The translations under genes and the position numbers were made by a program. A stretch of 32,000 nt of DNA from Geobacter sulfurreducens PCA. GTDB lineage: Bacteria; Desulfobacterota; Desulfuromonadia; Geobacterales; Geobacteraceae. How positions within the stretch are numbered: position 1 is the stretch's first letter; each line of letters opens with the position of its first letter. Under the pieces are notes generated by a model, which was given only the letters and a program-made list of their open reading frames with translations, did no database searches and was not told where the DNA came from. Of this stretch, positions 3,475 to 28,401 are shown piece after piece. The DNA lies in NCBI RefSeq assembly GCF_000007985.2, contig NC_002939.5:2700001-2732000 (forward strand), given 5' to 3'.

Positions 3475-5319
3475 ATGCACAGAGACATTCGCCTCCACGG
3501 CCAGATAGACGAACGGATCGAGTACTACGCCATCGTGGCGGGAGACGACTCGCACCAGCGCTACTTCTTCAACGCCGCGGAGGGGCCGGGGAGAGAGCTT
3601 CGCTTCTTTGCGCCCGGCAACGAATTCGTCCTGGGCCCGGGGGGCATCAGGCACGAGGGGAACGGCGGCTCCTTCTGCGAGTACATGTTCGGCGTGGACC
3701 AGCCGGTGCCGGACCTGGCCAAGGGCGACGTCATCAACCGGCTCGTCATGTACGGCGCCCGCATGGAGGAGGAGAGCGGCAACCTCATCTTCGACGACCG
3801 CACCGGCGGCCAGCTCGGCTTCGAAAAGATGTTTTTCGAAGGCAACGCCGTGGTCAACTACTTCTTCTTCATCTCCTCGGCCCGGGTGACCGGTCCCCTG
3901 AGACGGCAGCAGGAATCCATCGTCAGGACCATCGGCAAGACCCTCAAGCGCTCCGCCGCCGTAGGGGAGCAGGACGAAAACGCCCTCATCGCCGAGGTGC
4001 TGGCCCTCCTGAGCGATCCCACTGCCCTGTTCTTCCTCTTCAAGCTGATCAACGTCCACCACCGGGAGTACCACGACACCTTCCGGCGGCTCTACTTCAG
4101 GAACAAGAAGATCGCCGACGACGACTTCGCCATGCTCACCGCCGTTGCCGCGCGTCACGACATCGACCGCTACCAGCAGGAGCGGATCAGGATCGATGTC
4201 ATGTACAAGCACCCGGCCAACCGCCGGATCGTGGACGAGTACAAAAACATCCTGATCGGCTGCCACCGCAAGGGGGAGATCAGCCGGCTCGAAAACGCCC
4301 GGCTCACGCGGCTCAAGACCCTGTCGGTCCGCAACAAGATCCCGGGCGCGCTCTTCTACACCCTCGACGAAGTCCTGAAAAACGACAAGAAACTGGTGGC
4401 GCCCGAGGAGCAGGACTATCTCTCCGATATCCGCCAGATTCTCGAAGGAATCTTCCTGACCGAACGGGACATCGAGAGTTCCATCGACCGCGAGGACATG
4501 GCCCGGCTCCTCTTCGCCAAGAAGAAGGCCGCCGAAAACCGTGACCACGCCTTCGAGGAACTACTGCTGGACGCCAGCCGACTCTGCGACGAAAAGATGC
4601 GCGACGGCGCCGAACTGGCCATCATCGAGGGCTTTTCCTACCTGATCACCTTTTTCGACCGTTACGACACCACCTCCCAGGCCGTCAACCAGCTGGCCTT
4701 CATGGAAAACGTCCGGATCACCGAAGAGATGATCCGCAGCCTGCTGGGCAACAAGACCGCCTTCGACTCGCTTCGGGACGGCCTGTTCGACGAGCTCTTC
4801 ATCGCAGGACTCCTGGAAAACAAGTACCTGGGACGCTACGGCCGGATGAAGATCACCAACCTGCGGCGCGGCCTGGCGGAAATCGAGCTGAACCGGCTCA
4901 CGGTGGCCGCCCTGATGGAGCAGCTGCTGACCATCGACCGGGAGGAGCGCCTGGCGATCCTGCTCCTGTCCCACGTGCGGGACCGCATCCGGAACTTCTA
5001 CTCGAAGTACACCACCAAGGCCGATCAGCAGGCCCTCAGGCGCGAGGTGAACGAAGAGCTGATCGCCAAGAAGCTCGTCGACGGTAACGTCCCGGACCGG
5101 CTTTTCGACGAAACCATCCTCACCATCCAGAAGGAAGCGGTCTACCTCCACGGCCTCCTCCCCCGCATCATTGCCGACCGGGACATTGCCCTGCGCGAAG
5201 ACTTCCTGGAAAACTCGGGCCTCGACCGCTTCTACGTTGAGGAACTGGAGCGGGAGTACTTCGAGCTGAACGAGCTGGATCTGGAGGAGCTGTACCAGAT
5301 CAGGAAGGGTTTGAGTTAG
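3475..5319 (+). CDS. conserved hypothetical protein, 614 aa, with a mixed N-terminal domain and a long helical C-terminal region
   Basis: Long uninterrupted ORF with host-like GC. I recognise no catalytic motif. The antisense ORFs overlapping it are low-complexity shadows. Confidence 0.8.
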   Translation: MHRDIRLHGQIDERIEYYAIVAGDDSHQRYFFNAAEGPGRELRFFAPGNEFVLGPGGIRHEGNGGSFCEYMFGVDQPVPDLAKGDVINRLVMYGARMEEESGNLIFDDRTGGQLGFEKMFFEGNAVVNYFFFISSARVTGPLRRQQESIVRTIGKTLKRSAAVGEQDENALIAEVLALLSDPTALFFLFKLINVHHREYHDTFRRLYFRNKKIADDDFAMLTAVAARHDIDRYQQERIRIDVMYKHPANRRIVDEYKNILIGCHRKGEISRLENARLTRLKTLSVRNKIPGALFYTLDEVLKNDKKLVAPEEQDYLSDIRQILEGIFLTERDIESSIDREDMARLLFAKKKAAENRDHAFEELLLDASRLCDEKMRDGAELAIIEGFSYLITFFDRYDTTSQAVNQLAFMENVRITEEMIRSLLGNKTAFDSLRDGLFDELFIAGLLENKYLGRYGRMKITNLRRGLAEIELNRLTVAALMEQLLTIDREERLAILLLSHVRDRIRNFYSKYTTKADQQALRREVNEELIAKKLVDGNVPDRLFDETILTIQKEAVYLHGLLPRIIADRDIALREDFLENSGLDRFYVEELEREYFELNELDLEELYQIRKGLS

Positions 5320-5334
5320 GCCGCCCACGCGCAA

Positions 5335-6711
5335 TCAGAAATCCAGCGGGCTTCGCGCCTCCTTCACGGTCCTGACCGGAACACAATGGGTATAAATCAT
5401 TGTCGTTTTCAGGCTGGCATGCCCCAGCTTGGTCTGGATGGTGCGGATATCGTAATTGGCCTGCAGCAGGTGCGTCGCGTAGGAGTGGCGGAAGGTATGG
5501 GCCGTAACCCGCTTGGGGATCTTTGCCTTGCGGACGGCCAGGTAGAGCGCCTTCTGCAAGAGTGACTCATGGACATGCGCCCGCCTGAGCTGCCCGTTCG
5601 CCTCCACCGGCGTCAGATCCTTTTGCGGAAAGAACCATTGATGAATCAGCTCCTTCGGCGCTTTGGGGTATTTTTTCTCCATAGCATCATCGAGGAACAC
5701 ACCGTCATACCCCTGCTCCAGATCCTTTTCATGCAACTCCTTCACCCGCCGCATCTGCCGCTGCAAATCATTCAGGATAGACTCCGGCAGCGGCAGAGTC
5801 CGATCCTTCTTCCCCTTGCCGTGGACCGTAAGGATACCCGCATCGAAGTTGAAATCCCGAACCCGCAGCTGCAGACACTCGAACAGCCGCAGCCCGCAGC
5901 CGAACAGGAGTTTCACGATCAGGCCATGGGGGTGATAGAGGTGGGCAAGGATAGCGTCGATCTCTGCACGGGACAGCACCACCGGCACATAGAGCGACTT
6001 CTTGGCGCGCGGCACGTCCCTCAGTTCGCCGAAATCCCGCTTCAGGGCATGGCGGAACAGAAACAGCAGCGAGTTGAACGCCTGATTTTGCGTAGAGGCG
6101 GCCACATTACACTTCACCGCCAGCCAGGTTAGATACTCTTTCACATCCGCGGTTGTCAGCTCCACTGGAGGCTTGTTCTTCAAAAAGCGCTGGAATTGAC
6201 GGCACCACTTGGCGTAGGTCTGCAATGTTTTCCTGGAATAATGCCTGACCTTGATTTCCGCTGCCAGCTTCGCCATAACCTCATCCCATTCAGGAGAGTC
6301 GGATTTTTCCTGGTAGCCAGCGACGTTATAGAAAGAGTGCCGCGGGGGAACAGGAGGAGAGTCGGGCGGCACGTCAGCCGAACCTTCCGACTGCTGCGCC
6401 ATCGGTTGTGCGGACGGGGCTGAGGACACCGGCAACGTGTCACTGGCGCCACCCTTCAGCATGACGAAATACAAAGATACCGCCTGACTGGCCTGCTGCC
6501 GCTTCTGCTCAGACTGTCCTTTTTGCTGCAACTTGTTCAGGAAGAGATCGATTCTCTCCGGCTCGCTTCCCGTAACATGATACTTTTCACAGAAATCGAG
6601 AAAGTAGCGCAGCCATTTCAGATAGTCGGCAAAATCAGCGACCGCGATTCCGCAGTTGTTGTAAAAAGAACGGTATTGCCTGAACAGATGGTGCGGCAGT
6701 AAAATCATCAC
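5335..6711 (-). CDS. intI: integron integrase (tyrosine recombinase IntI) with an approximately 145-aa N-terminal extension
   Basis: LQLRVRDFNFDAGILTVHGKGKKDRTLPLPESI; IntI-specific insertion AMEKKYPKAPKELIHQWFFPQKDL..RRAHVHESLLQKA; catalytic AHTFRHSYATHLL..DIRTIQTKLGHASLKTTMIYTH; C-terminal ARSPLDF. Good SD (GAGGA) 6 nt before ATG 6711. An IntI1-length protein would start at Met146 (6276). Confidence 0.93.
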   Translation of the reverse strand: MMILLPHHLFRQYRSFYNNCGIAVADFADYLKWLRYFLDFCEKYHVTGSEPERIDLFLNKLQQKGQSEQKRQQASQAVSLYFVMLKGGASDTLPVSSAPSAQPMAQQSEGSADVPPDSPPVPPRHSFYNVAGYQEKSDSPEWDEVMAKLAAEIKVRHYSRKTLQTYAKWCRQFQRFLKNKPPVELTTADVKEYLTWLAVKCNVAASTQNQAFNSLLFLFRHALKRDFGELRDVPRAKKSLYVPVVLSRAEIDAILAHLYHPHGLIVKLLFGCGLRLFECLQLRVRDFNFDAGILTVHGKGKKDRTLPLPESILNDLQRQMRRVKELHEKDLEQGYDGVFLDDAMEKKYPKAPKELIHQWFFPQKDLTPVEANGQLRRAHVHESLLQKALYLAVRKAKIPKRVTAHTFRHSYATHLLQANYDIRTIQTKLGHASLKTTMIYTHCVPVRTVKEARSPLDF

Positions 6712-6788
6712 AATTCCTCAGAATTTTTAATTTAAGTTCTATCAAAGAATGCGTATAGTTGGCGACATATTTTCGATGCGGGTGACCA

Positions 6789-7139
6789 ATGAAAACACGC
6801 TTGACCCTGAAACCCGGGCAGCACGGCACAAAATCTCTGATAAAGAAATACGGCGACGCACTGGTATGCGTAAGATTTCGTTATGATCCGGAAACGAAGC
6901 AACGCCTGAAGACCGTAGAACTCATTGTCGAGCGGAGTGACTGGACCCCGCCGCCACCCCGCTTCACAAACGACACGCTTGTCCCGTTACGGGTAAAAGC
7001 CACCGACGTGGCAATCCGCAATCAGGTAAAAGCAGTCGGTGGACGTTGGAACCCGGAAAAAAAGTTATGGTTTGTCACCTACGGCAACATAGTCGGTACT
7101 CCGCTGGAAAAGCATATAGATGTAGATGGATTCGGATAA
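6789..7139 (+). CDS. small hypothetical protein between intI and the first recombination point; C-terminal GGRWNPEKKLWFV motif (DUF5710-like)
   Basis: 116-aa ORF with GGGTGA 5 nt upstream of the ATG. The C-terminal half resembles the x-R-W-D/N-x3-K-x-W-F/Y-V module seen at the termini of plasmid primase/topoisomerase-type proteins (from memory). Its last codons are encoded by the first 16-mer repeat. Confidence 0.6.
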   Translation: MKTRLTLKPGQHGTKSLIKKYGDALVCVRFRYDPETKQRLKTVELIVERSDWTPPPPRFTNDTLVPLRVKATDVAIRNQVKAVGGRWNPEKKLWFVTYGNIVGTPLEKHIDVDGFG

Positions 7140-7237
7140 GGATAACCCTCGACTCCATCTATATCTATATAGGCAAGCCCCATATAGATGTAGATGCTTC
7201 CATCTACATGTACTTGGTTCTATATATTTGTAGATAG
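7113..7237. repeat. array of five alternately oriented copies of a 13-16 bp motif (CATATAGATGTAGATG)
   Basis: Perfect direct copies at 7113-7128 and 7181-7196. Inverted copies are CATCTATATCTATAT (7156-7170, 1 mismatch) and CATCTACATGTAC (7201-7213). A degenerate direct copy TATATATTTGTAGATAG is at 7221-7237. The second pair forms ATGTAGATG-cttc-CATCTACAT. Confidence 0.9.
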
Positions 7238-7240
7238 CAC

Positions 7241-7268
7241 ACCCTAACGGGTGATTTACGAGTTGAAT
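7241..7268 (+). other. candidate attI simple site (CCCTAAC ... G|TTGAAT)
   Basis: GTTGAAT (7262-7268) fits GTTRRRY and is the exact complement of the R'' (ATTCAAC) of the next attC, which marks the start of cassette A. A CCCTAAC L-box-like element lies 15 nt upstream. No attC-like arms precede it. Confidence 0.45.
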
Positions 7269-7291
7269 GATTAAAAACGGAGAAACAAGAA

Positions 7292-7819
7292 ATGAACTGG
7301 AAATCATTTGCCTTCGGGTTTGTTGCTGGAGTGGCTCTCCTTTCTGCCATTAGCCACTGGAGAGCAAGACCGCAAAATGTTATCGCTTCCTGGCCAGATG
7401 ATGACAACAAAAAAGGAATGCAGATGATGGCGCCATGGGTGACAGAGGCGAGAGTAGGAAGGCTTGGCCCTTTCGTTGCGATGGTTCCAAATAAATTTGA
7501 TGCCAGCCCGGAAGCATTACTTCAACCAGTAAAAGCGAAAAGTCCATGGATTTACGTCAAAGGCGAGGAAGTAATGATTCACGACAGCAAGAAAAGGGCA
7601 ATTTCCATCGATTTCAATGCGTCAAACGGAGAATTTAGTTCTTACACCTTTCATCCTGACTTGACCACTGCAACAGGTCAAAGTTTCACGGATAAAAACC
7701 TGACAGGTGTCATGGAAAAATTTGAGCCCCAAGTGAAGAAGAAGTTAACATTCAACCAGGAAGAAGCAGCGGCCTATAAACCGCCGCTGTTCTCCCGGCC
7801 CGTTAGGCAAAAAGAATGA
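7292..7819 (+). CDS. cassette A protein: N-terminally membrane-anchored or secreted, unknown function
   Basis: 175-aa ORF, one hydrophobic segment (WKSFAFGFVAGVALLSAISHW), GGAG upstream. The ORF reads through attC1 and stops 15 nt into the next cassette. Confidence 0.65.
   Translation: MNWKSFAFGFVAGVALLSAISHWRARPQNVIASWPDDDNKKGMQMMAPWVTEARVGRLGPFVAMVPNKFDASPEALLQPVKAKSPWIYVKGEEVMIHDSKKRAISIDFNASNGEFSSYTFHPDLTTATGQSFTDKNLTGVMEKFEPQVKKKLTFNQEEAAAYKPPLFSRPVRQKE
7750..7808 (+). other. attC site 1 (59 bp)
   Basis: R'' ATTCAAC, L''/L' palindrome AGCAGCGGC / GCCGCTGT, R' GTTAGGC. The 3' arm is nearly identical to that of attC2. Confidence 0.8.
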
Positions 7820-7842
7820 ATGACATGACTCAGGGAGGTGAC

Positions 7843-8598
7843 ATGAAAGATCGAGATTACACTGCTCCGGGTATTGTTATGGGAGTCATTTTTTATATTA
7901 CTATTTTGAGTTCAGCTGCACCGACACTTAAAATGATTGACATAGTTGCTCCAATTGCAACTTTACTTGCTGCATTAGTTGGTGCTGAAGCCGCATTTAG
8001 ATTGCAAAGGGAAAAAACTGAAAAAACAGAAATGACCCGAAGAAAGAGCGCTGCAAACCAAACAGTTCACTTAATATCAAACATCTACTCAAATTTAAGA
8101 CAATACAGAAGAGAAATTATTGAACCTACAGAAACTTTGCCTGTACCGTGGTTAGGGTTAAGAGGGTTGTTGGCCTATCACTATGAAGTGAATTTGCCGC
8201 GCGAAGGATTGCTATTCATGTTCGAGGGGGAAGGTGATGGTGCACAAATATATGCAGAACTAATAATGGAAGAGCAACGATATAATTTAGCCATAGGAAT
8301 GATAAAGCAATTACATGAAACCATTAAAAACAAACTTCAACCTGAACTGGAACGCCTAGGTTATTACCCCGGCAATGTTGACATACAACAGTTATTGTCT
8401 CAACTCCCACCTAGCTTAATAATTGATCTCAACAGCCTTACACATGAAACATACAAAATAGTTCGTGAAAATATTGAATCCATACAAGAAGTGTACGAAA
8501 AGTTTCAACAAAGTATGAAGTCACAATTTCCCAACATAAAAGTGGCACGCTTGATTTTTGATGACGGAATGCCTAACCAGGCAGAAACACCGGCCTAA
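7843..8598 (+). CDS. cassette B protein: two TM helices plus an approximately 190-aa helical soluble domain, unknown function
   Basis: ORF in frame from 7816. The best start is ATG 7843, 4 nt after GGGAGG (7833-7838). TM segments GIVMGVIFYITILSSAAP and IVAPIATLLAALVGAEAAF. The stop TAA lies inside attC2. Confidence 0.7.
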   Translation: MKDRDYTAPGIVMGVIFYITILSSAAPTLKMIDIVAPIATLLAALVGAEAAFRLQREKTEKTEMTRRKSAANQTVHLISNIYSNLRQYRREIIEPTETLPVPWLGLRGLLAYHYEVNLPREGLLFMFEGEGDGAQIYAELIMEEQRYNLAIGMIKQLHETIKNKLQPELERLGYYPGNVDIQQLLSQLPPSLIIDLNSLTHETYKIVRENIESIQEVYEKFQQSMKSQFPNIKVARLIFDDGMPNQAETPA

Positions 8599-8628
8599 AA
8601 CCGCCGGTGTTCTCCCGAACCGTTAGGC
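8571..8628 (+). other. attC site 2 (58 bp)
   Basis: R'' GCCTAAC, L''/L' ACACCGGC / GCCGGTGT, R' GTTAGGC. R'' is the exact complement of the G|TTAGGC that opens this cassette at 7802. Confidence 0.85.
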
Positions 8629-8635
8629 AATTAAT

Positions 8636-9025
8636 ATGAATTTTGCGGAAATCATTGTAGTCGCCTTGGCGATCATCCTCATCCTCGGTCTGATTGCGAT
8701 CATACTAGGACCAATGTTCGGTTGGCGAATCGCCGCGAGGAATGAAGAGTTTATTCCATTTTCCTCCAGAATTGAGGCACGAGAAAAAATTCGTGTCGCA
8801 CTAATGGAACAAGGATGGGAGATTGAGCACGACGGCCCGGATAGAATGAAAGCTCGAACGAAAATAAGCTGGCGGTCATGGGGGGAAATCATAAAGATCG
8901 AGTTTGCCGATGGAGGCGCAAAAGTGAGTTCTGAATGCTCACTACCGACGCAAGCTATCGATTACGGGAAGAATAAGATCAACGTCCAAAAACTTGTGGA
9001 TGCGCTGACGAAAAGAAATGCCTAA
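8636..9025 (+). CDS. cassette C protein: single N-terminal TM plus a small soluble domain, unknown function
   Basis: 129-aa ORF with TM IIVVALAIILILGLIAIILGPMFGW. The stop TAA overlaps the R'' (GCCTAA) of the interrupted attC3. Weak SD. Confidence 0.65.
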   Translation: MNFAEIIVVALAIILILGLIAIILGPMFGWRIAARNEEFIPFSSRIEAREKIRVALMEQGWEIEHDGPDRMKARTKISWRSWGEIIKIEFADGGAKVSSECSLPTQAIDYGKNKINVQKLVDALTKRNA

Positions 9026-10934
9026 TCGGGTAGCCGGGGGTTTTACCCCCCCAGCCCCCACACCACCCGGCATGCGGGTCCGCACCGGGCGGTTCGACGA
9101 AGTTACCGGGCCGTGGCCGGGTAATGGATCTTCACCCACAGTTCTTTGACAGATACAAGTCCTTGATCCTTCAGCCACTGGTTGGTCATACCGTGCTGGG
9201 CGGCAAGCCTGCGGGACATGGCCCACGGACCGTTGCGGTTCAGCCCTGCTCTGATGGATGTGCCAAGCTGTACACCCAGTTTGAGCAGGTTCCGAATCTT
9301 GGTGCGGCACCACCGCCACTGCTTCCAGTAGCACAGCCGCACCCGCCGCCGTATCCAGCCGTCGATCTCCGGGATGTCACGGTAGGCTTCGGCAATGCCG
9401 AAGTACCCCATCCAGCCGCGGAGGTAGGTCGACAGCTTGTTCAGTCGGTACTCCATGGAGACGAACCAACTCCTGCCGGTGTACTTCCTGACCCGGCGCC
9501 GGAACTCCTTGTACGCCTGGTCAGACCAGAGGATTTTGGTTCCCTTGAAGACAAAGCCAAGAAAGCTCAAGTCGCCGCTTCTGGCGACTTTGCTCTTGTC
9601 TTCGTTGACCGTGAGCTTGAGTTTGTTCGTCAGATACTTCCTGACGCTCCCCATGACCCGCTCGCCGGCACGCTCGCTCTTCACCAGAATGACGAAATCA
9701 TCGGCGTAACGGACGAACTTGTGGCCACGGCTCTCAAGCTCCTTGTCCAGGTGGTCGAGGAGGATGTTGGCGAGAAGCGGGGAAAGCGGACCCCCTTGGG
9801 GTACGCCCATGCGGGTCTTTTCCAGCCGCCCGTCAACCTCCACCCCGGCTCTGAGATACCTGCCGATCAGGGTGAGAACCCGCTTGTCGCGGACCCTCCT
9901 CCCCACCATTGTCATGAGGAGGTCGTGATTGACCGTGTCGAAGAACTTGGCAAGGTCGATGTCCACGGCAATGCGGTAGCCCTGCCGCAGATACTCCCGC
10001 AGCTGCCGCACGGCATTGTGTGCCGAGCGGCCGGGGCGGAACCCGAAACTCGATGCGGAGAATTCCGGATCGAAGATCGGCGTGAGCACCTGGGCTGTTG
10101 CCTGTTGGATCAGCCGGTCAAGGACGGTGGGAATCCCCAGCGGGCGGGTGCCGCCCGTTGGTTTGGGTATTTCCACTCGAAGGACCGGCTGTGGTTGGTA
10201 GGTACCTGTTGCAAGCGATGCACGGATATCGCCCCAGAGGGGCCGGAACCGTTCGGGGAACGCGTCGATGGTAACACCATCGACGCCAGGTGCGCCCTTG
10301 TTGGCCCGCACCCGTTTCCACGCCAGGTCCATGTTCTCTGTGGCAAGTATCCGCTCCAGTAGGTGCTCTTCCGGAGTTGGCCGGTCAATGACGCGCTCCA
10401 CGGGCATTCCCCCGGTCGGGTTCGGTATGTCGTGAAAGCTCATTGGGGCTTACCTCCTCTTCATCGTTCGGCCCTTCGGCGGGGTAAGGCTTCCCGGCTG
10501 TCTGTGACGACGCCGGGCTTGTTTCCAGGTGCCGGATCGCTGGCGGCAACGTCCGCGCCTACTATGGCTTCTGCTGACTCCTGCCCCATCACGGCAGCTG
10601 TTACCAGAGGCCGCGCCAGCAAACATCGCTAGCATGTGGAGCAGGTCTCCCCGGATAAGAACGTGAACTGTGGCTACACAACCGCAGCATTTACCTTGGC
10701 ATCCTGAATCCGTGGGACTTCGTCATGTTGTGCTGACTTGCCCGGACACCCCGGCCTTGTATGCTGTTTCTGTTCGTCGGCTCATAGCTTTGCGCTCGGG
10801 CTTCCTTCAGACCCCTCCTCGCGGAGGCGCCCTTGCCGTCGGCTAGTACTTTGGTACCCTGTCTCGCGACAGTGCTGGATTCTACGTACAGGGGACTTGC
10901 ACCCCATTAGTTCACGCCCATGCCGGGCGTACAC
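9025..10934 (-). mobile_element. bacterial class C (attC-associated type) group II intron, full length (ends uncertain by about 3 nt)
   Basis: The minus strand starts GTGTACGCCCGGCATGGGCGTGAAC (GUGYG-type 5' end, c10934). Domain V GAACCGCCCGGTGCGGACCCGCATGCCGGGTGGT has a CGC triad. Domain VI GGGGCTGGGGG-GGTAAAA-CCCCCGGCT(A)CCC has a bulged A 7 nt before ...GAT. The RT ORF sits in domain IV. The 5' exon ends 9 nt after the attC hairpin stem (3 nt if the outer CGCCAC/GTGGCG pairing is counted). Confidence 0.85.
9103..10443 (-). CDS. group II intron reverse transcriptase/maturase (no endonuclease domain)
   Basis: 446 aa. RT motifs RPLGIPTVLDRLIQQA, FGFRPGRSAHNA, VDIDLAKFFDTVNH, GVPQGGPLSPLLANI, FVRYADDFVIL. 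Maturase X domain LGF..RGWMGYF. Short C-terminus typical of class C. Confidence 0.95.
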   Translation of the reverse strand: MSFHDIPNPTGGMPVERVIDRPTPEEHLLERILATENMDLAWKRVRANKGAPGVDGVTIDAFPERFRPLWGDIRASLATGTYQPQPVLRVEIPKPTGGTRPLGIPTVLDRLIQQATAQVLTPIFDPEFSASSFGFRPGRSAHNAVRQLREYLRQGYRIAVDIDLAKFFDTVNHDLLMTMVGRRVRDKRVLTLIGRYLRAGVEVDGRLEKTRMGVPQGGPLSPLLANILLDHLDKELESRGHKFVRYADDFVILVKSERAGERVMGSVRKYLTNKLKLTVNEDKSKVARSGDLSFLGFVFKGTKILWSDQAYKEFRRRVRKYTGRSWFVSMEYRLNKLSTYLRGWMGYFGIAEAYRDIPEIDGWIRRRVRLCYWKQWRWCRTKIRNLLKLGVQLGTSIRAGLNRNGPWAMSRRLAAQHGMTNQWLKDQGLVSVKELWVKIHYPATAR

Positions 10935-10985
10935 TAGCGCCACGACCGGCCTAGAAACCCGCCGGTCAGGCTTGTGGCGTTGGAA
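10935..10985 (+). other. attC site 3, right-hand part (left part is GCCTAAT at 9020-9026, separated by the intron)
   Basis: TAGCGCCAC-GACCGGC-ctagaaacc-CGCCGGTC-aggcttgtggc-GTTGGAA. The spacing of L''/L' and R' is identical to attC1/attC2 (9 nt and 11 nt spacers). The R' core is degenerate (GTTGGAA). Confidence 0.65.
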
Positions 10986-10990
10986 GAAAG

Positions 10991-11392
10991 CTAAACCGTC
11001 CAATCAATGATATTGAGGGAAGGGACCCGTAAAAACTCGCGGGTGTTATTAGTGACCAGAGGGATTCCTAACGATACAGCGTGAGCGGCAATCAACATAT
11101 CCATGGAGCCAATGGGCGTACCAGCTTTTTCAAGAGCTGCTCGAATATCTCCATAGACATGAGCCGCCGATTCATCATAAGAAACCAATTCCAAAGGAAT
11201 GATGAATTCGTCGAGGGCCTTGGCGTTTTTCTCCATATGGGTGCTCTTCGCAACTCCGTAGCGCAATTCCGAGAGAGTTATGGATGAAATGCCAATATCG
11301 CCAACCTGGTACTCTAAGAAACGCTCAAGTACAGCAACCGGCTGCTGCTTTATGATGTAAATGCAGATATTGGTGTCGAGAAGCAATTTCAT
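10991..11392 (-). CDS. vapC: PIN-domain toxin VapC
   Basis: MKLLLDTNICIYII..., acidic PIN residues, ...LVTNNTREF. ATGA overlap with vapB. The stop is 6 nt from the attC3 R' core. Confidence 0.92.
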   Translation of the reverse strand: MKLLLDTNICIYIIKQQPVAVLERFLEYQVGDIGISSITLSELRYGVAKSTHMEKNAKALDEFIIPLELVSYDESAAHVYGDIRAALEKAGTPIGSMDMLIAAHAVSLGIPLVTNNTREFLRVPSLNIIDWTV

Positions 11393-11619
11393 CAGAAGCC
11401 ATCCCGCTTGTCCAGTTCAGGTTGTATGCGCTCGGACATGAAATCGCGGGAGAATTTCTTGAGACTGCCGAAGAGGGAATTCCACGAATCGCTCCGAGGG
11501 ATCAGTTGAACGACGTTGCCGCTTTTCTTGATGAATACTTCGCTGTCTTCGAAGCGAAATTCTTTGGGAAGCCTTACTGCCTGACTTTGTCCATTTTGAA
11601 AAATCTTTGCAGTTTTCAT
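11392..11619 (-). CDS. vapB: AbrB/SpoVT-type antitoxin VapB
   Basis: MKTAKIFQNGQSQAVRLPKEFRF. GGAGG 6 nt upstream of ATG 11619. The track start at 11634 adds 5 unsupported residues. Confidence 0.9.
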   Translation of the reverse strand: MKTAKIFQNGQSQAVRLPKEFRFEDSEVFIKKSGNVVQLIPRSDSWNSLFGSLKKFSRDFMSERIQPELDKRDGF

Positions 11620-11633
11620 TTCTGACCTCCACA

Positions 11634-11795
11634 TTAATATATATTTGAAGTATATATTTCAGGTTTTAGGTTGGCAAGTAAAATTTCAACAATGATGAGA
11701 GAACGAACTCCCAACATGGCCACAAAGATCAAAACAACTTTTATGACTGTAATCTCACGGATTCAGGTAGGGGGAAGACCATTTTTTGTCGCCAT
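11634..11795 (-). pseudogene. higA-like (Xre HTH antitoxin) remnant with an in-frame stop and C-terminal truncation
   Basis: AAGGAG RBS overlapping the higB-like stop, then ATG 11795: MATKNGLPPT-TGA-IREITVIKVVLIFVAMLGVRSLIIVEIL... The stretches xREI(T/L) and LGV......EI resemble HigA N-terminus/HTH by eye. It ends after about 53 codons at the vapB promoter region. Confidence 0.35.
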
Positions 11796-11806
11796 AATAT
11801 TTCTCC

Positions 11807-12055
11807 TTAATGGTAGTCGGTTATTTCAACATAACTCGCTTCGCCGTCAATAAAACTGAAACATATTCGCCACTTCAGGAGTTCCGGGGACATCCATGGA
11901 AATATACAGACCCAAAGGCGTTGGAGCAAAGAACCCATGACGCTAGAAGAGCGATAAAGACTCGCAAGATTGAACGCCGCTTGGCTTGCAGGAGAGAAGA
12001 TTGACGCTCTCAGGTTTCGGTACAATTCAACCTTATCAAATATTTCGTGGAGAAC
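11807..12055 (-). pseudogene. higB-like (plasmid-maintenance killer family) toxin remnant
   Basis: C-terminus KWRICFSFIDGEASYVEITDYH matches the family signature WRIcF...g.a..VeivDYH. An N-terminal IFDK..ELY is present. There is no start codon at the expected N-terminus and the middle is about 8 residues short. The 117-aa track ORF begins in unrelated GC-rich sequence. Confidence 0.45.
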
Positions 12056-12137
12056 TTGACGAGTACGTGCTTTCCTCCCCAGAGGAACTGCAGCAGGTCC
12101 GCAAAGGGCTGAGCTGAGTAGAGAACGCCCGCCTCCC

Positions 12138-28208: not shown

Positions 28209-28375
28209 GATGCTTGACCTGCCGGGGGAACGGGGCATACTATGGGGGACATTCATGCAGCCGAGATCCGTTCGCGAGAACGGGTGCGGGGGACCCACTT
28301 CGGGGGCGTATTCCGGCAATGGCGCCGGATAGAGGACTTTCAGCCTCGAGCCCGTCAGCTAACCTCGTAGGCATC
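28209..28375 (+). promoter_or_regulatory. c-di-AMP riboswitch (ydaO/kimA class)
   Basis: Conserved blocks as I recall the motif: GTGCGGGGGACCCA (28285-), GGGGCGTATTCC, AUAGAGGA, and TCGAGCCCGTCAGCTAACCTCGTAGGCATC at the 3' end. P1 GATGC (28209-28213) pairs with GCATC (28371-28375). The 5' limit is uncertain. Lies in the leader of a K+ transporter gene. Confidence 0.78.
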
Positions 28376-28401
28376 TGGAAGGGCACGACAGCGGTTTCAG
28401 G

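Follow-up and report, generated by a model that had tools for sequence, protein, structure and literature searches.

Integrons are usually defined by three parts, the integrase gene intI, the recombination site attI and a promoter. In attI1 of class 1 integrons, extra protein-binding repeats (DR1 and DR2) upstream of the simple site modulate how attI and attC recombine; such DR-type repeats are lacking in most attI sites (PMC8191803), and chromosomal integrons appear to need accessory factors, so far unidentified, for this reaction (PMC8191803, PMC8946536). Accessory DNA is also found with other tyrosine recombinases. The core used by Xer, a relative of IntI, at cer and psi has a one-sided accessory sequence of ~150-180 base pairs (bp) bound by ArgR/PepA or ArcA, and the arms of lambda attP carry phased accessory sites for Xis, IHF and Fis, together with a small element-encoded protein that binds DNA. 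Here, we analysed a stretch of 32,000 nucleotides (nt) from Geobacter sulfurreducens PCA (contig NC_002939.5, positions 2,700,001 to 2,732,000; hereafter the window, with positions counted from its first base), in which the interval between intI and the first cassette of an integron holds a gene for a protein of 116 amino acids (aa) and an array of five palindromic 16-mers. Comparison with other genomes suggests that this module is a fourth conserved component of the integron platform, with a function that we infer from sequence.

The Geobacter locus shares with attI1 the extra repeats upstream of the simple site, and DR1/DR2 are the closest integron feature, yet they follow a different design. 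DR1 and DR2 are two direct repeats that contain the core motif GTTA and serve as binding sites of IntI1 itself, whereas the Geobacter array consists of five palindromes without GTT, is fixed in its phasing and is coupled to a dedicated gene. The accessory proteins of the Xer systems are host housekeeping proteins encoded elsewhere, while the candidate factor here is encoded by the element, in a gene that overlaps the first site. As in lambda attP, phased sites beside a tyrosine recombinase core are combined with a small element-encoded protein, putatively DNA-binding in this case; unlike lambda attP, the sites are identical palindromes and not a mixture of site types, no arm-binding domain is implicated in IntI, and no directionality role is evident. 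A reading frame between the promoter and the first cassette, in or beside attI, is also present in attI1, where ORF-11, ORF-17 and ORF-18 comprise 11-18 codons and act by translational coupling, with the peptide sequence being of little importance (PMC8876359). The gene described here differs from these frames in encoding a conserved 116-aa protein that is predicted to be folded. The original prediction knew of no described equivalent, and our literature search likewise found no such gene or palindromic array inside an attI region; the reviews of integron host factors describe no such component.

The intI gene lies on the minus strand at 5335-6711 and encodes a long-form integron integrase of 458 aa (TIGR02249, 362 bits against a cut-off of 265, model positions 2-313 of 315; Pfam Phage_int_SAM_4 and Phage_integrase). 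Its core spans aa 146-457 and is preceded by an extension of ~145 aa with a second SAM-like (Phage_int_SAM_4-like) domain at aa 29-82; the extension alone scored 27.8 bits against PF13495, for which the cut-off is 27. At least 120 full-length homologues share this long form (445-489 aa), most of them from Geobacter and other Desulfuromonadales. The attI core occupies 7242-7268 on the plus strand and reads CCCTAAC (7242-7248), GATTTAC (7253-7259), GA and GTTGAAT (7262-7268); the family consensus in an alignment of 34 loci is tctaaC.g.tcAAtAAc..GTT. As predicted, this first core stands far from intI, whose start is 551 bp away. Up to and including ...GATTTACGAGTT (7264), four G. sulfurreducens assemblies show 100% identity, and from the following base they are unrelated; since this alignment breaks exactly after GTT, the crossover at G|TT 7262 is proven. 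The exact 116-aa protein occurs in KN400 (CP002031), in CP010430 and in an ENA assembly, always beside the same TIGR04442 gene and intI, and three further loci (L109, L110 and L132) share a common array and diverge right after GTT.

Past the core lies a low-GC (guanine plus cytosine) cassette region with canonical attC sites. Cassette 1 spans 7263-7808 on the plus strand, with an open reading frame (ORF) at 7292-7819 and an attC at 7750-7808 that runs from ATTCAAC to GTTAGGC and for which an attC fold was detected. The inner repeat of this attC, ATTCAAC (7750-7756), is the reverse complement of GTTGAAT (7262-7268), and this complementarity is the classic signature of a cassette boundary. The attC of cassette 2 (8571-8628, plus strand, 58 nt) runs from GCCTAAC to GTTAGGC, its GCCTAAC (8571-8577) is complementary to GTTAGGC at 7802-7808, and its bottom strand folds at -33 kcal/mol. 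An IntI-type recombinase that carries the integron-specific insertion, variable content past G|TT and attC sites with complementary boundaries together identify a genuine and active integron, into which cassettes are inserted at G|TT 7262.

The array between the small gene and the core was found as predicted, with five copies of a 16-mer. Two copies of CATATAGATGTAGATG are perfect and stand 68 bp apart, as site 1 (7113-7128) and site 3 (7181-7196), and the degenerate copies are site 2 (CATCTATATCTATATA, 7156-7171), site 4 (CATCTACATGTACTTG, 7201-7216) and site 5 (TATATATTTGTAGATA, 7221-7236). Site 1 lies inside codons 109-114 of the small gene and encodes the last residues HIDVD; the positions of sites 2, 3 and 4 are kept in 34 loci; from the start of site 5 to the crossover GTT there are exactly 41 bp. 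The 9-bp hairpin with a 4-nt loop is also present, at the junction of sites 3 and 4. The alternating orientation originally ascribed to the repeats did not hold up, each unit being itself a dyad-symmetric 16-mer that reads similarly on both strands. When up to three mismatches to CATATAGATGTAGATG were allowed, the window contained 4 matches, compared with 0.05 expected from shuffled sequence. The site consensus is YATMTA-N4-TAKATR, in which A2, T3, T5, A6, T11, A12, A14 and T15 are each conserved at 95-99%. A genome-wide origin as a dispersed repeat had been named as a possible objection; in the related integron loci, arrays recur beside the gene and the motif is rare elsewhere, with 47 sites of a looser motif in 441 kb of flanking DNA against 4-5 in each array of ~125 bp.

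Site 1 overlaps coding sequence, which allowed selection on DNA to be separated from selection on protein. Across 53 genes, synonymous positions are frozen in codons 107-113 while other third positions vary. Under site 1, His is encoded by CAT in 41 cases and by CAC in none, and Asp by GAT in 45 and by GAC in none, compared with 39 GAT and 14 GAC at Asp33. Ile under the site is ATA in 45, ATT in 4 and ATC in 0 genes, whereas Ile69 is ATA in 11, ATT in 15 and ATC in 26; Val is GTA in 32/37 cases, whereas Val65 is GTT in 32, GTG in 9, GTC in 8 and GTA in only 3. The variable residue x of the C-terminal motif LEK-HIxVD falls on the unconstrained central N4 of the site. Because synonymous positions are frozen only in its codons, site 1 is selected as DNA. 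Each of the five positions also has its own preferred variant, retained across phyla (site 1 has A4 and G13 in 32/34 loci). At site positions 4 and 13 the bases are complementary in 65 cases and not in 102, so that the compensatory variation expected of hairpins or attC-like folds is missing, and such folds were rejected; the earlier statement that nothing in the interval folds like an attC agrees with this. Since the half-sites lack hairpin-type covariation, we read them as duplex protein-binding sites and not as folded DNA or RNA. Judged by codon usage and half-site variation, the sites are selected as duplex DNA.

Two known kinds of binding site were considered for the palindromes and set aside. 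The Geobacter LexA box is GGTT-N2-C-N4-G-N3-ACC, and the sites are unlike it; moreover, identical sites occur in Geobacteraceae and Nitrospirota though the LexA boxes of these phyla differ, and a LexA operator array was rejected. The sites bear a weak resemblance to the IHF consensus, WATCAA-N4-TTR, but IHF is an improbable occupant, as the sites are symmetric and their 20-bp spacing would be too tight for IHF-sized footprints.

The gene, the sites and the core were then compared across loci (L-numbers below), comprising 78 genome loci retrieved through the 116-aa protein and further metagenome loci retrieved by an array-first scan. The complete module of gene, five sites and core occurs in well over 60 loci, in Geobacteraceae and other Desulfuromonadales, Nitrospirota, Chloroflexota and Burkholderiales. 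An array was detected in ~50 of the 78 genome loci and in ~38 metagenome loci, and nearly every intact case among the former has the gene, then 3-5 sites, then tctaaC.g.tcAAtAAc..GTT, with similarity stopping after GTT. Sites 2-5 could be aligned gap-free, at 0, +25, +45 and +65, across 34 loci from Geobacteraceae and Nitrospirota, with GTT following at +106. The 41 bp from the start of site 5 to GTT are invariant in these loci and also hold for the variant array of G. metallireducens, while site 1 lies ~45 bp upstream of site 2 and in every case inside the final codons of the gene (LEK-HIxVD). The window follows this family layout, with sites at 7113, 7156, 7181, 7201 and 7221 and GTT at 7262. 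The array-first scan gave 66 matches, of which ~38 were true modules and ~28 unrelated AT-rich satellites; an adjacent gene was present in 21 of the ~38, and because of the satellites the raw count understates the linkage between gene and array. These results showed that gene, sites and core form a unit shared by at least three phyla. The interval is thus not filler, and the part of the original prediction that held it to be functional is borne out by a unit conserved across phyla with fixed geometry to the crossover; the part that offered the N-terminal extension of IntI as array binder is not, as described below. Collapsed arrays at three loci (L007, L043 and L048) are what a chance or decaying repeat without function would produce. 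Such a repeat is hardly credible here, given the geometry kept across phyla, the synonymous positions frozen under site 1 and the excess of matches in the window over shuffled sequence.

The predicted 116-aa ORF is present at 6789-7139 on the plus strand and carries the motif GGRWNPEKKLWFV. It is a genuine gene under strong purifying selection: across 53 full-length copies the amino acids are conserved and third codon positions vary freely, and the ratio of nonsynonymous to synonymous substitutions (dN/dS) is ~0.10, with saturated dS, the same with an adjacent intI (16 loci) and without one (32 loci). At E<=1e-3 the protein has 770 homologues; identity is 68-93% for the best 120, which belong to Geobacter, Desulfuromonadaceae and Nitrospirota. 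When 1.84 billion cluster representatives were searched with a profile, 2427 clusters (50% identity) matched at E<=1e-3 and 1225 at E<=1e-10, mostly of 110-130 aa. The AlphaFold2 model, with a mean predicted local distance difference test (pLDDT) score of 83.7, consists of two small alpha/beta domains with a PPPP linker between them. The N-terminal domain belongs to no recognised family. It occurs alone, fused to a Cys-rich C-terminus, among small unnamed genes of the Trichlorobacter lovleyi plasmid pIAE1 (L082, 3977-4294), which was the sole match, and a partial one, among 72,556 plasmids; the two domains are therefore separable. NCBIfam and PADLOC gave no match to the protein, PHROGs gave a single one to a family without assigned function (E 0.028), and no relatives were found in IMG/VR viral contigs.

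The C-terminal domain is DUF5710-like. It shares with DUF5710 (PF18974) of Rep_3 initiators and of phage and giant-virus proteins the motif GGRW-x4-K-x-W-x-V and a similar predicted local fold, and DUF5710 was matched at E<=0.01 in 19/20 relatives. In the BFVD viral-structure search, the top matches were DUF5710 proteins with local probabilities of up to 0.99 and E-values of 0.01 or worse. Unlike these proteins, the window protein stays below the Pfam cut-off of 26.5 (22.8 bits, or 24.5 for the domain alone) and has another N-terminal domain and another genomic context. The papers searched mention DUF5710 solely in fusion to Rep_3 plasmid initiators (PMC11233732). From this fusion one could propose an iteron-like array, on which the DUF5710 protein would bring proteins for priming or replication restart to attI, with replication then resolving the atypical Holliday junction of attI x attC. 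The array is indeed an AT-rich run of repeated sites, and cassette insertion needs replicative resolution by host factors not yet named (PMC8946536). We consider this very unlikely, because Rep, primase and helicase domains are absent, no replication function is tied to DUF5710 itself and the idea is wholly indirect. An identity as a Rep_3 origin was rejected on the same lines, there being no Rep_3 match and the repeats being dyad-symmetric, while iterons are usually direct repeats.

On circumstantial grounds, the 116-aa protein is the most likely candidate for the array binder. Its gene abuts the array and overlaps site 1, and gene and array have been transferred together across phyla. A second class of arrays adds to this. 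In L149 (G. metallireducens), L151 (Geotalea sp.), L077 and relatives, the sites read TTTMTA-N4-TAKAAA; spacing, 41-bp offset and core are unchanged, and the C-terminus of the gene is altered as well (EKFIVIE). All seven TTT-class proteins that could be scored at both ends carry R39Q and R77Q, compared with 0/125 proteins of the CAT class. In base recognition, Arg usually pairs with guanine and Gln with adenine, and the exchange of Arg for Gln alongside the G-to-A switch of the sites fits this pairing.

Two ways in which IntI itself might occupy the array were weighed. The N-terminal extension of IntI was rejected as an obligate binder, since extension and array occur without each other: L057 has an ordinary short-form IntI of 347 aa beside gene and array, gene and array are both absent in Pelobacter propionicus, which has a long-form IntI, and of four further long-form loci three have both. 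On this distribution, binding of the array by the extension is unlikely. The palindromes might also be accessory IntI sites of an arm-type or DR-like kind, with the small gene doing something else. The layout lends itself to this proposal, as the 16-mer, written xATxTAC-NN-GTAxATx, has the same inverted arrangement as an attI simple site (xAxTAAC-NN-GTTxxxx), the L box of G. sulfurreducens is GATTTAC, the arrays survive deletion of the small gene, and attI1 has its accessory IntI1 sites DR1 and DR2 (PMC8191803). Yet the original prediction was right that the repeats contain no GTT and do not resemble DR1/DR2-type sites: GTT and AAC are absent, the units are palindromic, and the array class switches from CAT...ATG to TTT...AAA while the core stays unchanged, which together argue that they are not core-type IntI sites. 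In addition, two recombinase monomers would not fit on the 20 bp available per palindrome, arrays persist without intI in cis, and the extra IntI domain and the array are not linked. We therefore judge accessory IntI sites to be improbable.

The reading that we prefer, tentatively and with slightly less than even confidence, is that of an extended attI with its own accessory module, in which the small protein on the array aids or gates recombination by IntI. A dimer of the protein would sit on each palindrome. In sites 3-5 a half-site follows every 10 bp, and these half-sites would hence fall on one face of the helix, giving a phased nucleoprotein complex ~3 helical turns from the core, as set by the 41-bp offset. 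Such a complex could shape or mark the DNA so that IntI assembles a productive attI x attC synapse, and would act as an architectural or gating cofactor. By analogy, its role may resemble that of ArgR/PepA for Xer at cer, or of Xis/IHF for lambda Int. The same complex would probably gate read-through transcription into the first cassettes, because gene, array and cassettes run in the same direction and the cassettes had no detectable promoter of their own. The wider proposition is that many chromosomal integrons of environmental anaerobes encode an attI-specific accessory protein, from a new family of two domains with a DUF5710-like C-terminus, which assembles on the phased array of five sites 41 bp from the crossover and is required for cassette capture or controls it; on balance we think this rather unlikely.

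The intergenic region between the divergent intI and small gene (6712-6788) contains a -10-like block, GCGTATAGT with TATAGT at 6754-6759, that is conserved in the alignment of Geobacter-type loci. It may be the promoter of the small gene and, via read-through, of the cassettes. A consensus scan for promoters and terminators over 6600-7400 gave nothing exceeding shuffle background and did not call this block, nor did it reveal a promoter within or after the array or one belonging to the cassettes. These features also suit a purely transcriptional unit, in which the protein on its operators represses itself and blocks or permits read-through from its own promoter, or from lexA in Nitrospirota, and takes no direct part in strand exchange. 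Promoterless cassettes in line with gene and array, the conserved -10-like element, purifying selection on the module that persists without adjacent intI, the Nitrospirota modules directly downstream of lexA and in its orientation, and the common autoregulatory layout of a gene followed by its own operators are all consistent with such control. The invariant 41 bp from site 5 to the crossover is more simply explained by recombination geometry, five phased sites exceed the need of a simple operator, and the array contains or precedes no detectable promoter. We regard transcriptional control as the main function as unlikely, if a little less so than the alternatives above.

Several observations weigh against an accessory role of the small protein in recombination. 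Among the 78 genome loci, a substantial intI lies beside the module in 19, fragments in 8, and none within 4 kb in 51. As about two thirds of the modules lack intI within 4 kb, a purely recombination-related role needs IntI in trans. Intermediates of intI loss in place are seen at L033, L001 and L007 and in L050 compared with its syntenic relative L049, and loci without intI still have attC sites after the core. Loss of the gene is seen as well: sites 1-5 and the core have survived in at least six independent modules whose gene is cut to its last 12-45 codons (gene-deleted modules are L084, L092, L116, L117, L140/L144, L097 and L090/L130), and one metagenome-assembled genome carries three modules with three site types, two of which have pseudogenised gene copies and intact arrays. 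The array is therefore not strictly dependent on the gene in cis, nor on intI. Gene-less arrays may be recent relics, may be served in trans, or may be bound by another protein; since some genomes have several modules, action in trans is plausible. The covariation of Arg-to-Gln with site class comes from a single clade and counts as one event. Finally, the protein has no recognisable DNA-binding fold, and searches of the PDB gave no match to it, either by sequence (best E 0.43, to SRP9, not significant) or by fold with Foldseek (best E 0.73).

If the wider proposition on integrons of environmental anaerobes is true, the small protein would be the first recombination cofactor encoded by an integron, and a tangible candidate to explain the 'missing host factor' behaviour that sedentary chromosomal integrons show. 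A component that is encoded by the platform and has an exact geometry offers an experimental handle on the question of accessory factors, in the tractable G. sulfurreducens. More speculatively, cassette capture might be coupled through the DUF5710 domain to the replication by which the recombination intermediate is resolved. A large unnamed protein family (~1,200-2,400 clusters at 50% identity) gains a genomic context, and the module would aid the annotation of attI in metagenomes, including cassette arrays without a neighbouring integrase.

The module varies among the loci compared. In one subgroup (L010, L011, L020, L021, L028, L030, L033, L037, L045 and L048), the ORF extends through site 2 to ~130 aa and ends ...KKHLYVYTS*, so that two putative binding sites lie inside coding sequence. 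L076, L097, L112, L134 and L136 have a third type of array, CATATAATATTAGATG, with AATATT conserved at its centre; in several of these loci the gene is degraded or absent. In the Nitrospirota, a PD-(D/E)XK gene sometimes stands between lexA and the module; lexA lies upstream of the module (upstream of 4001) in L004, L008, L015, L019, L023, L031, L053, L059 and L062, and a Y-family DNA polymerase gene follows the cassettes in L016, L023 and L034. With lexA before and the polymerase after, the Nitrospirota cassette array appears embedded in an SOS-type lexA...dinB unit. The attI GTT is also followed by other insertions, as a tyrosine recombinase and an IS91-type Y2 transposase are inserted exactly after it in L022 (2190-4291), L044 (4671-6728) and L049; the bases right after GTT are GAACTAAGCCGCT in both L022 and L044 and the near-identical GAACTAAACCGCT in L049.

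Within the window, the last ~24 codons of the TIGR04442 gene (...YQIRKGLS*, 5245-5319) recur in diverged form (...QQVRKGLS*, 12041-12106) past the cassette array, and the block of intI and cassettes (~5320-12040) therefore looks inserted at the 3' end of this gene, carrying a replacement end. The ORF of the first cassette (7292-7819) crosses its own attC and ends 11 nt inside the next cassette, so that its stop codon comes from the neighbouring cassette; it overlaps the ATG of the ORF at 7816-8598 by 4 nt. The third attC is interrupted by a group IIC-attC intron (~9027-10935, minus strand; Rfam match), followed by a vapC/PIN and antitoxin cassette on the opposite strand (10991-11620, minus strand). 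This order of intron and vapC corresponds to the published G.s.I1 of strain PCA (PMC3001079). In KN400, the same toxin-antitoxin pair ends a different cassette array. Elsewhere in the window, and unrelated to the integron, Rfam matches at gathering score identified a SAM riboswitch at 113-215 and a c-di-AMP riboswitch at 28249-28388.

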